A stretch of 62,979 nt of DNA, filler included, from Reclinomonas americana ATCC 50394 (lineage: Eukaryota), in NCBI GenBank assembly GCA_048213135.1. It is 5 parts of 3 records of this genome, joined end to end, with 100 filler letters (N's around TTAATTAATTAA, not from the genome) between each part and the next. Parts side by side here need not be neighbours in the genome. Positions count along the whole stretch, not along the records: positions 38,667 to 60,680 come from PS015054.1; 4 more parts are not named here. One strand, given 5' to 3'. The notes beneath the pieces were generated by a model. That model worked only from the letters and a program-made list of their open reading frames with translations. It was not told the origin of the DNA and searched no databases. The position numbers and the translations under genes are program-made. Shown piece after piece: positions 38,784 to 55,561 of the stretch (the stretch's first letter is position 1; the number at the start of each line of letters is the position of its first letter).

Positions 38784-39072
38784 GAAACTGCTGGCTTCTT
38801 GAAGGACAAGAAGAAGCACACCCAAGAGAGCACAGCCGCCATTGCTGCTGCCCGAAGTGACGCTGAGCAGGGTGCGTCAGTCTCTCTCTCTCTCTCTCTC
38901 GCCTCCTCCTCCTTCTTGCTGTCTTTGGTGTTCTCGCGTCACGTGTTGTCTCACCTGGGTGGTGCATGTACACAGCTGCTCACCTGGAGCGCGTGGAACA
39001 CACGGCGATGGAAGGCATCGTCGAGGTAAGTGATTGTGTGTGTCATCCCATGATGAGCATGCCTCATACTGG

Positions 39073-39109
<37 letters not shown>

Positions 39110-52600: not shown

Positions 52601-55561
52601 GGCATTCGGCATCATGGCACCCGTTGCGCTGCCAGGCACTATCCGTCATCATCAGCGCGTTCTTGTAGAACTCGCCTGCAAGGAGTGTGGCATCCCTTCA
52701 TCGAAAGCAGGACGGCTTTCGTCGGCAGTCGTCAACTCATTCAGCAAGAGTCTTGGCGAATTCGTCCAAAAGGCACGCGCCAAGACGCCCAAGTCTGTTG
52801 AGGGAGTACTTCAGATGATGAGCGACTTCATCATGGTGAGCCCATCCATCTCGCACGACTGAATCAAAGGCCACCGCTGATATCAATGTGTGTGCCATGA
52901 TGCAGAAGAGTGAGTTGCGCGGTGCTGCCCTGGTGGATGCCATTAAAAGACCACGGATTGTGGTGGATGAACGTGGCTTTTCGGAGGTGTGGCTTCCCCG
53001 CGCTCTGCATGTATTCTCAGCATGGGTGGTGTTTTCTCACATTCTGTGCTCCGAAAATCGGATGTCAGGAGTCGTCACGCTTAGCGGGGATGCAGCACAA
53101 CAAGCAGATCCCTCTTTTGATATTCGTCACACAGGTTGTGGAGGCTTTCCACAACTGCCCTGGCCTGCTGGCCGCTCTGCTCCGAGATGGCTGTTTGTCT
53201 GAGACGGAGATTGCACGCGCTGTTGCGTGGTGCTGCGAACGAGGTTTGGCTGGCTGACAATCTTAATTGTTGCACAACATGCAAGCGCTGACAATCTGGC
53301 ACAGCTCGGAGGGAGATGGAGATGGTGAAGAAGGAGGAGAAGGAGGAGGAAGAGCAGGAGGATGCTAACGATAGCGAGAATGATGCTGTCAACGCGAGAG
53401 GGCATGGTAGGAGCAAGGTACGCCCACCACTTCTTTTGAATTATTCAATAGGTGTGTATCTTAACAACTCATGGTGTGCATGCCACAGAGCCACAACAGT
53501 GGTCCTGCGAAGCTGAGCATCAGCGAGCAACTGATGCTGGCGAAACTGCTTGTTGCGTGTTGCTGTGATCTCTGCACGTGGCTGACAAAATATTCGTGGA
53601 CTCCTCACTCCAATCTACCCGCATTTCCGTTGAGCAGGGTTGCAATAAGAAGAGGATACTGGTGAAGGCACTCGGCCTCATGGCACCCGTGGTGGTAGGA
53701 TCCACAGTCCTCCACCACCAGCGCGCTCTCCTCCAACTTGCCTGTGATGAATGCGGAATGCCGTCAGAGGGACCTGGCTGCCCGTCATTCGCAGTCTTGT
53801 GTGTATTCGGCAAGAGTCTTGCCAATAGTGCCGGCACGGCACGCAACAAAACGCCCAAATCAGTGGAGGGCGTGCTTGAGAGCGTGAGCAACTTCATCGA
53901 AGTCAGTGTCCCTGTCTTGTTCCTGTTTCACATTTGATGGCTTTGCCTGCTGACCGACTCGACATGAATGTGTATGCGATCATCAGAAAAGCAGTCTTCG
54001 AGGAGCCGAGCTGGTGGATGCTGTCCAGAGACCAATAATTGTAATTGACGACCGCGGCTACTCGGAGGCATGGGGACTGTGATTGTGTGCGTTGATGTGC
54101 ATCAATGATGTTGTCTCACTTTCTCGATTCTCCGGTGGTAGGAATCAGCCAAGCTGACGCAGATAAACGGCAAGCAAATTGTCCTTCTGCCGTTCGTCAC
54201 ACAGGCCATGCAGGCTCTCCGCAACTGCCCTGGCCTGCTGGTCACTCTGCTGCGAGACGGTTGCCTCTCTGAGGAAGATATGGAGCGTGCTGTCGAGTGG
54301 TGCAGTGAACGAGGTGTGGCTGTGAGGCTCTGTTGTTGCACATTGTGTCCGAGTGCTGACAAGCAGGGGACAGTTCTGACGGAGACAGAAATTGTGAAGA
54401 AAGAGGAGAAGAGGGAGGACGACGAACACGCGGATGATGATGATGACGGCAGCGAGAATGAGGACGATGATGGGGAGGGGAAAAGGAGACACAAGGTACG
54501 CCCGACGATGATATCTGCGAGACGTGAATGATGTGTGCATTTCAAACAGCATGGTTCTCAATCGCAGCGCCGGAAGATTGGCCCTGCGAAGCTGAGCGTC
54601 AACGAGCAGCTTATGCTCGCGAGACTACATGTTGCGTGTTATTGTTACCTCTCTGCTCGGCTCCTCACTCCCACTCACTCCACGCACATGCGAACAGGGC
54701 TGCAACAAGAAGAGGTTGCTGGTGAAGGCATTCGGCCTGATGGCACCTGTGGTGATGACATCCACTGTCCGCCATCATCAGCGCGTTCTCTTCCAGCTTG
54801 CCTGTGACGAATGCGGAATACCTTCAAAGGGACCGAGCTGTCCGTCATCCGCAGTCATGTCTGCATTCATCAAGAGTCTCGCCTGCAATGCCAGCACGGC
54901 ACGCAACAGGACTCCAAAGTCAGTTGAGGGTGTGCTGGCGAGCGTGAGCAACTTCATCGATGTGAGTGTCGTTGTGCTGTTTCGGTGTCGCCTCCGATCG
55001 TGACGTTCTGGTGACTGACTTGAGTTTCAATATATGCGGGATCATCAGAAGAGCGGTCTTCGAGGACCTGAGCTGGTGAATGCTGTCGAGAGACCACTGA
55101 TTGTCATCGACGATCGTGGCTACTCTGAGGCATGTCTCCTGGTTGTGTGGTTCTGTGAATTGATGTTAGCTGCTCACTTTCTCGTTTCTCGAGTGACAGG
55201 AATCAGCAGAGTTGCCGAAGTTCAGCAAGTCAAATGTTCTTCTGCCATTCGTCACGCAGGCCTTGCATCTGCTCCGCAACTGCCCTGGCCTGCTGACCAG
55301 TCTGCTGCGAGACGGGTGCCTTTCGAAGGCGGAGATTACACGTGCTGGTGAGCGCTCCCAACTGGAACGAACTTGATGCACCTGGTTGTTGTTGCGTGTC
55401 GTTTCATCAGGAGCACTGACGAGCATGATGCAGTGCTGGATGACAAGAAGCCGGTGAAGATGGAGGTGGTGAAGAAAGAGGAGGAGGAGGAGGAGGAGGA
55501 GGAGGAGGAGGAGGAGGAGGACGAGGAGGACGAGGACGAGGACGGTACTGCGTGGAGGTAA
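48278..55561 (+). CDS. unknown tandem-domain protein, paralog B (5 copies of the ~190-aa domain, acidic linkers, basic NLS-like motifs)
   Basis: ATG at 48278. Domain exons start at about 50301, 51484, 52572, 53638 and 54698, with the same intron positions as paralog A. Stop at 55559-55561. Confidence 0.8.

Follow-up and report, generated by a model that had tools for sequence, protein, structure and literature searches.

The genome assembly of Reclinomonas americana ATCC 50394 (GCA_048213135.1) carries a locus at which one unfamiliar protein domain is repeated many times, which raises the question of what such a protein might do and how its copies have been shaped. The window, that is, the whole stretch of DNA analysed (62,979 nt), had been read from its sequence alone as containing nine tandem copies of a domain of ~190 amino acids in two paralogous genes with conserved intron positions. 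All nine were found at that span on the + strand, four in gene A and five in gene B, and both genes are real (Table 1); the sequence-only reading missed the wider family, about 90 genes strong, of which they are part. Each repeat comprises the tail of exon a followed by exons b (88 aa), c (27 aa) and d (49-59 aa), 176-186 aa overall, and the intron positions and phases are identical across the nine, the acidic linkers forming exons of their own. Pairwise identity among these repeats is 51-79%. The WC listed among the conserved motifs is present in the repeats, except that the last repeat of gene A and that of gene B lack the final one. The gene models were inferred from sequence and homology, with splicing by AG and GT/GC ends. 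GC donors were found in 128 of 388 c-d introns of the family and one apparently occurs also in the intron preceding exon b, GC-AG splicing being unusually frequent.

Several details of the layout had to be corrected. Gene B was found to begin at 48278, a position not included in the gene as previously pictured, and one small exon part of it falls inside the N run 49204-49556. The first exon of gene A is absent from the assembly, the contig edge being at ~38667. Within a run of A near 40892-40897, gene A carries one base too many, and its frame is shifted after the first repeat; this reflects an error of sequencing or else a genuine break. The N runs 40152-40669 and 41515-41534 of gene A act as zero-length gaps, because the exon lengths equal those of gene B once the N are removed; several N runs within contigs overstate the true gap. 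Contig joins are marked by a 12-base stop linker with 44 N on each side (38611-38622 and similar).

Table 1. Positions in the window of the two genes, their repeats and the features discussed in the text
Feature	Position	Strand	Remarks
Gene A	38785..44291	+	Four repeats between N-terminal exons and a short acidic end
Basic PPKKKK cluster exon	39316..39363 (gene A); counterpart 49994-50044 (gene B)	+	Likely nuclear localisation signal
Repeat A1, class 1	39497..40806	+	Contains zero-length N gap
Repeat A2, class 2	41213..42039	+	
Repeat A3	42314..43111	+	
Repeat A4, terminal class	43393..44142	+	Without final WC
Exon b (264 nt), gene A, starts	39621, 41338, 42439, 43493	+	
Upstream region conserved among family members	48062..48277	+	Likely promoter and 5' UTR; homology onset differs in nearly every copy
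Gene B	48278..55561	+	Pro/Ser/Thr-rich exon 1, then basic N-terminal exons; five repeats and an acidic tail follow; ~1,400 aa
Repeat B1, class 1	50177..50976	+	
Repeat B2, class 2	51370..52160	+	
Repeat B3, class 3	52447..53243	+	
Repeat B4, class 4	53519..54313	+	Class of variable copy number
Repeat B5, terminal class	54598..55347	+	
Exon b (264 nt), gene B, starts	50301, 51484, 52572, 53638, 54698	+	
Exon b example (repeat B4)	53638..53901	+	Predicted 88-aa helical subdomain, weakly like tyrosine-recombinase core-binding domain
Repeat B4 codon b21	53698..53700	+	Hypervariable, start of second helix
Repeat B4 codons b63-b71	53824..53850	+	Hypervariable 63, 66, 67, 70, 71 around Arg69

The product had been pictured as a nuclear, multivalent and possibly SUMO-modified protein, with psi-K-x-E motifs in acidic linkers and a basic PxxKKKK motif near the N-terminus. 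Both kinds of motif are present, and gene B has nine psi-K-x-E motifs where 2.7 are expected from composition. No hydrophobic membrane segment beyond a 19-residue mean of 2.0 was seen; the repeats are basic, with a mean net charge of +4.9. The picture is consistent with the basic clusters, the excess of psi-K-x-E and the lack of a membrane segment. No signalling or effector domain was found in gene B, all of which is accounted for by repeats and linkers.

Other genes and repeats share the window. A ferric-reductase/NADPH-oxidase-like gene (46441-47935, with a PF08030 match at 47057-47641) separates gene A from gene B and runs in their direction. Exons at 38222-38566 resemble a SAM-dependent methyltransferase, presumably of the leucine carboxyl methyltransferase type. 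At 60781-62979, Cys-rich EGF-like repeats of 93/99 nt flank six repeats of 120 nt, and the product is probably a surface protein. A unit of 296 nt is present in 3.2 tandem copies of 87% identity at 19487-20440, and repeats of 126 nt (42 codons) on a G-rich stretch, WD40-like by their period, occupy 6464-7771.

The extent of the family was estimated over the 108-Mb assembly. A first look for exon b gave 538 candidates, of which 150 were scored and all 150 matched. For a single-copy exon of the N-terminal part, 101 candidates yielded 88 matches, all free of stops, which puts the family at 88 copies or more. The subset taken for analysis comprised 69 genes in which the N-terminal exon and the terminal exon were both present. 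Among the 61 genes with fewer than 100 N inside, five repeats were counted in 42, four in nine, six in nine and two in one. Repeats follow one another by position class in the order 1-2-3-(4)n-terminal, class 4 being present once or twice, and are 65-75% identical within a class versus 53-65% between most classes. Among 431 different b exons free of N, 422 were intact with standard ends and none had an in-register stop; the remaining nine were frameshifted (four), had a shifted acceptor (four) or an altered end (one). Histone genes occur in this assembly as near-identical pairs or threes, so that both haplotypes may be represented, which is a caveat on the copy number of the family; after identical repeats had been collapsed, no distinct repeats were less than 1% apart.

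The question of how these copies evolve was addressed by codon analysis. Purifying selection, claimed from the nine repeats, holds overall (median pairwise dN/dS 0.34, range 0.21-0.62, 36 of 36 pairs below 1); that claim had overlooked diversifying selection at a few sites. Counting changes along a tree of 388 spliced repeats, with branches up to 0.15, gave an overall dN/dS of 0.56 and values of 2.6 at position 21 of exon b (b21), 2.7 at b63, 2.2 at b66, 2.6 at b67, 2.1 at b70 and 2.0 at b71. Nine sites exceeded 1 after Bonferroni correction, namely these six, b25, d8 and d12. Because gene conversion can mislead a tree, the test was repeated tree-free on 164 disjoint close pairs, in which pS (0.147) agrees with the intron distance (0.143) and overall pN is 0.084. 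The ratio to pS was 2.46 at b21, 2.25 at b63, 2.14 at b67, 1.95 at b70, 1.91 at b71 and 1.58 at b66 (P from 5e-5 to 6e-18). Among the other sites, b25 was marginal (1.34), d12 fell below the reporting threshold and d8, at 2.10 times pS, lies in a gappy stretch and was not relied on. When the six b sites were taken class by class, 29 of 30 ratios were above 1, the exception being b66 in class 2 (0.7). Both tests are counting methods rather than likelihood site models, and synonymous divergence at the six variable codons is itself raised locally (0.20 versus 0.147), so that the excess is just 1.5-fold relative to local pS.

The variable sites are arranged in a definite way. Arg69, which lies amid them, is kept in 385 of 388 repeats, and the positions F57, L61, A/V65 and R69 of the third helix are constrained (ratios 0.04-0.36). 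At the variable sites most residues are N, Q, K, R, H, D, S, T or G, and 291 distinct combinations at positions 63, 66, 67 and 70 were counted in the 388 repeats. An AlphaFold2 model of exon b (120 rows; pLDDT 89, pTM 0.75) has four helices, at residues 4-18, 21-39 (21-26/28-39), 51-71 and 76-87, with a pLDDT of 86-93 over helix 51-71. On this helix the variable sites are spaced i, i+3, i+4, i+7, i+8; sites 63, 66, 67, 70 and 71 are predicted to share one face, with F57, L61 and A/V65 on the constrained side, and b21 is predicted to cap helix 2. The spatial clustering of the variable sites is inferred from this helical spacing; covariation over the 388 repeats yielded no contacts that could be interpreted. 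Recognition helices typically combine a variable i, i+3, i+4, i+7 set with an unchanging arginine beside it, and the pattern around Arg69 fits one. In a read-through copy with both introns in frame the model of exon b was unchanged, and those of exons c and d were poor; the reading of the repeat proposed below does not account for these two exons (~85 aa, with an invariant Trp-Cys).

The family was described as unrecognised, and it still is. Pfam gave no credible match for 11 exons or for 50 and 120 alignment members, nor did PHROGs and NCBIfam for the 120 members, PDB sequences for the repeat domain, or word-based searches, including longer and near lengths as well as phages. When 1.84 billion representatives were compared with an eight-sequence profile of exon b, just two matches were obtained (E 6e-4 and 7e-4), apparently unrelated. 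Foldseek found no match at E 0.001 among PDB and viral structures. C2H2 fingers and KRAB were sought in the repeat exons without any Pfam match, and no finger pattern was seen in their translation. In the literature searched, no description of this tandem-domain family was found; likewise, no matching paper was found on histone-fold tandem expansions in protists, and on SAM-like recombinase expansions no title or opening of an abstract referred to such a family. The family is real, selected, large and unclassified.

A lead on its origin came from the language-model Atlas, in which the top match of exon b was Phage_int_SAM_1 (0.91); 11 of 30 matches were of this kind, with one QRICH1 row, and the features in common were 90 of 256, recognition lying under the Atlas threshold. 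A profile of recombinase N-terminal regions, a target chosen once this match was known, was built from 51 sequences, 48 bacterial and three encoded by the assembly; its eukaryote-type part is limited to three because relatives of the assembly's recombinase ORFs were not found in the protein, viral and metagenome collections. HHalign aligned exon b with this profile over 61 columns, in order over helices 2-4 (E 0.027), with none of 50 column shuffles and none of 30 block shuffles scoring as high. A smaller mixed profile was matched by 0 of 40 shuffles, and the whole repeat aligned with the mixed profile over 79 columns (E 0.016). In a search of 206 proteins that included 57 recombinases, the latter made up nine of the top 15 matches to the b profile, with all HMM scores below 4 bits. 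The HHalign probability of the link is 1.8-2.9% versus 58-76% in positive controls, and a 12-column match to H2A scored almost equal to the recombinase alignment (14.4). With a bacterial-only profile the register was the same and the score ordinary (11 of 50 shuffles as high, and three of 40 in a smaller test); global-mode alignments were not significant, and direct comparison with three recombinases of the assembly itself gave no match. As for structure, four helices are predicted (pLDDT 89), the best Z of the wide search was 4.7, and no tyrosine recombinase was among the best 50 matches for either model. Taken from these sequence comparisons, descent of the exon-b subdomain from a tyrosine-recombinase core-binding domain that lost its catalytic half has, in our estimate, somewhat less than an even chance.

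The assembly does encode tyrosine recombinases elsewhere, and PF00589 gave 18 matches in it, none at a family locus. Long ORFs of 1,880 and 1,919 aa (C103:33747-39386, C8866, C10589), which may be DIRS-like, end in an apparently intact tyrosine recombinase; the 1,880-aa ORF of C103 has PF00589 at its C-terminus and two or three relatives in the assembly, no reverse transcriptase was found in its frame, and a 720-aa ORF overlaps it (C103:34916-37075). The assembly also includes bacterial contigs (C1 and C2, one longer than 2 Mb) with XerC/XerD-like genes, the XerD having its nearest likeness in Chitinophagaceae, so that the culture must have been impure.

The large number of copies and the possible recombinase ancestry invite a reading of the unit as a selfish, mobile element, or as the cargo of one, that spreads by transposition. 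About 90 similar copies stand head to tail or amid unrelated genes, as might be expected of such an element. The places at which their flanking homology ends are scattered: the 5' onset was mapped to 23 places between 708 and 1094 of a spacer of 1,184 nt, the 3' end to 26 (66-986), a few of them adjoining gaps or contig ends, with no common terminal motif at either side. The spread of the family is segmental duplication of a working gene and not transposition, and the suggestion that homologues might sit within transposon ends was checked and did not hold. No transposase was found with the family copies, the genes have ~30 introns and no catalytic domain, decayed copies are almost lacking and all eight multi-gene pieces keep to a single strand, which makes a mobile element highly improbable. 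A different transposon connection, also very unlikely in our view, is that the repeat is a zinc-binding CxC-type cysteine cluster from a KDZ transposase, formed through the HH...CxxC motif in which a metal site had been suspected. Atlas features of the read-through repeat pointed to CxC4/CxC5 clusters (0.84), and several Cys and His are well conserved. That score, below 0.9, counts as a lead only, the query carried intron-coded cysteines, and exon b alone did not reproduce the result; PF18717, PF18718 and PF18758 gave no Pfam match on the repeats, and CxC is not mentioned in the available part of PMC12730594. The metal site itself is doubtful: among 175 copies His27 is replaced by Tyr in ten, while His26 is kept in 152 and Cys36 in 166, and the model is all-helical in the His/Cys region, with His27-Cys39 placed along one helix.

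Structural comparison brought up another candidate, a very divergent double histone fold that would make the protein a single-chain poly-histone wrapping or chaperoning DNA. Judged by their titles, about 23 of the best 50 structural matches to the exon-b model were histone folds (residues 22-88, Z 3.6-4.7, rmsd 2.3-3.9), another wide search gave a similar picture, and the second half of the repeat aligned with H2B over 40 ungapped columns (E 0.05, three of 60 shuffles as high). Exon b has a helix-loop-long helix-loop-helix order and the modules are tandem and basic, as in double histone folds and viral histone repeats. The Z values, however, are under 5 and so below the level that the tool calls usual for unrelated models; exon b against H2A was not significant (10 of 60 shuffles, with an H2A-H2B control of 93%), nor was the first half against H2A or H2B, the two profiles used, and Pfam gave no histone match in 120 members. 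The central helix of histones has ~28 residues, whereas helix 51-71 has about 21, and so fast a diversification would be out of character for histones. A review of double histone folds, PMC13088155, describes no such protist family in the part available to us; PMC11222145 concerns the same kind of proteins. The histone reading is accordingly improbable. A divergent histone H3 variant, possibly centromeric, is encoded elsewhere in the assembly (C185:19223-19592 and C6544). More weight is due to the view that the variable face binds proteins, the family being an intracellular receptor repertoire that recognises foreign or selfish proteins as these change. Receptor repertoires show just such a pattern, a repeat with one surface under diversifying selection, no DNA-binding family was matched significantly, and a fast-changing helix face suits protein binding and DNA binding equally well. 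What speaks against receptors is the lack of a signalling or effector domain in gene B, a variable set that is polar and basic rather than aromatic, a near-invariant Arg among the variable sites, and basic clusters and psi-K-x-E motifs that point to chromatin. On balance a receptor repertoire appears unlikely.

That six positions change faster than neutral suggests that the members of the family are likely to read DNA sequence, as mammalian zinc-finger genes do, and a diversifying repertoire of nuclear DNA-sequence readers with changing targets stands at about an even chance. In such a protein, Arg69 and nearby Lys would hold the domain on the DNA backbone and the variable residues would contact bases, while four to six domains on acidic linkers would give long composite sites. 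The psi-K-x-E sites and the acidic linkers would recruit SUMO-dependent repressors or chromatin factors. Duplication and selection would renew the repertoire, driven by a race with mobile elements or viruses. The stronger form of the proposal, a genome-defence repertoire of KRAB-zinc-finger type made from a transposon DNA-gripping module and evolved independently in a single-celled eukaryote, is rather unlikely. If it were true, there would be ~90 genes and ~450 recombinase-derived core-binding domains, each with a recognition code of five or six residues, and they would constitute a new programmable DNA-binding scaffold.

Two known systems come closest. With the tyrosine-recombinase core-binding domain (PF02899/PF13495) the family shares four predicted helices of similar lengths and the weak collinear alignment; it differs in that helix 3 is longer by about five residues at its end, the part with the variable sites, in the lack of a catalytic domain (R-K-H-R-H/W-Y), and in its four to six tandem copies, two sequential ones having been reported for RitA. 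Core-binding domains bind DNA; their sequence conservation is low according to the available part of PMC8138268. Loss of catalysis has precedents in the domesticated Crypton recombinases ZMYM2/3/4, QRICH1 and KCTD1, which are catalytically dead and many of which are described as transcription regulators in the portion of PMC3212892 available to us.

The resemblance to the KRAB zinc-finger proteins (KZFPs) of tetrapods lies in organisation: both are large, clustered, lineage-specific families grown by segmental duplication, in which an unvarying N-terminal part precedes tandem units that differ in number. KZFPs undergo diversifying change at recognition-helix positions. Clustered expansion and diversifying selection at a few helix positions are both found here, as in that analogue. 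In the available text of PMC5363842, the KRAB zinc-finger genes are described as clustered, lineage-specific and grown by segmental duplication, and their arrays as tethering a repressor to transposable elements. Unlike them, the present family has no C2H2 fingers or KRAB box, its unit of 185 aa is spread over four exons, and position-specific repeat classes are kept. The 388 natural variants on one scaffold make a recognition code directly testable, and the scaffold might find use as a programmable DNA-binding module; even if the partner were a protein, a new domain with a mapped and selected binding face would have been found. Animal zinc fingers are the main known case of fast-diversifying tandem families of DNA readers; if a microbial eukaryote does use a scaffold of its own to the same end, this strategy of reader diversification has evolved more than once.
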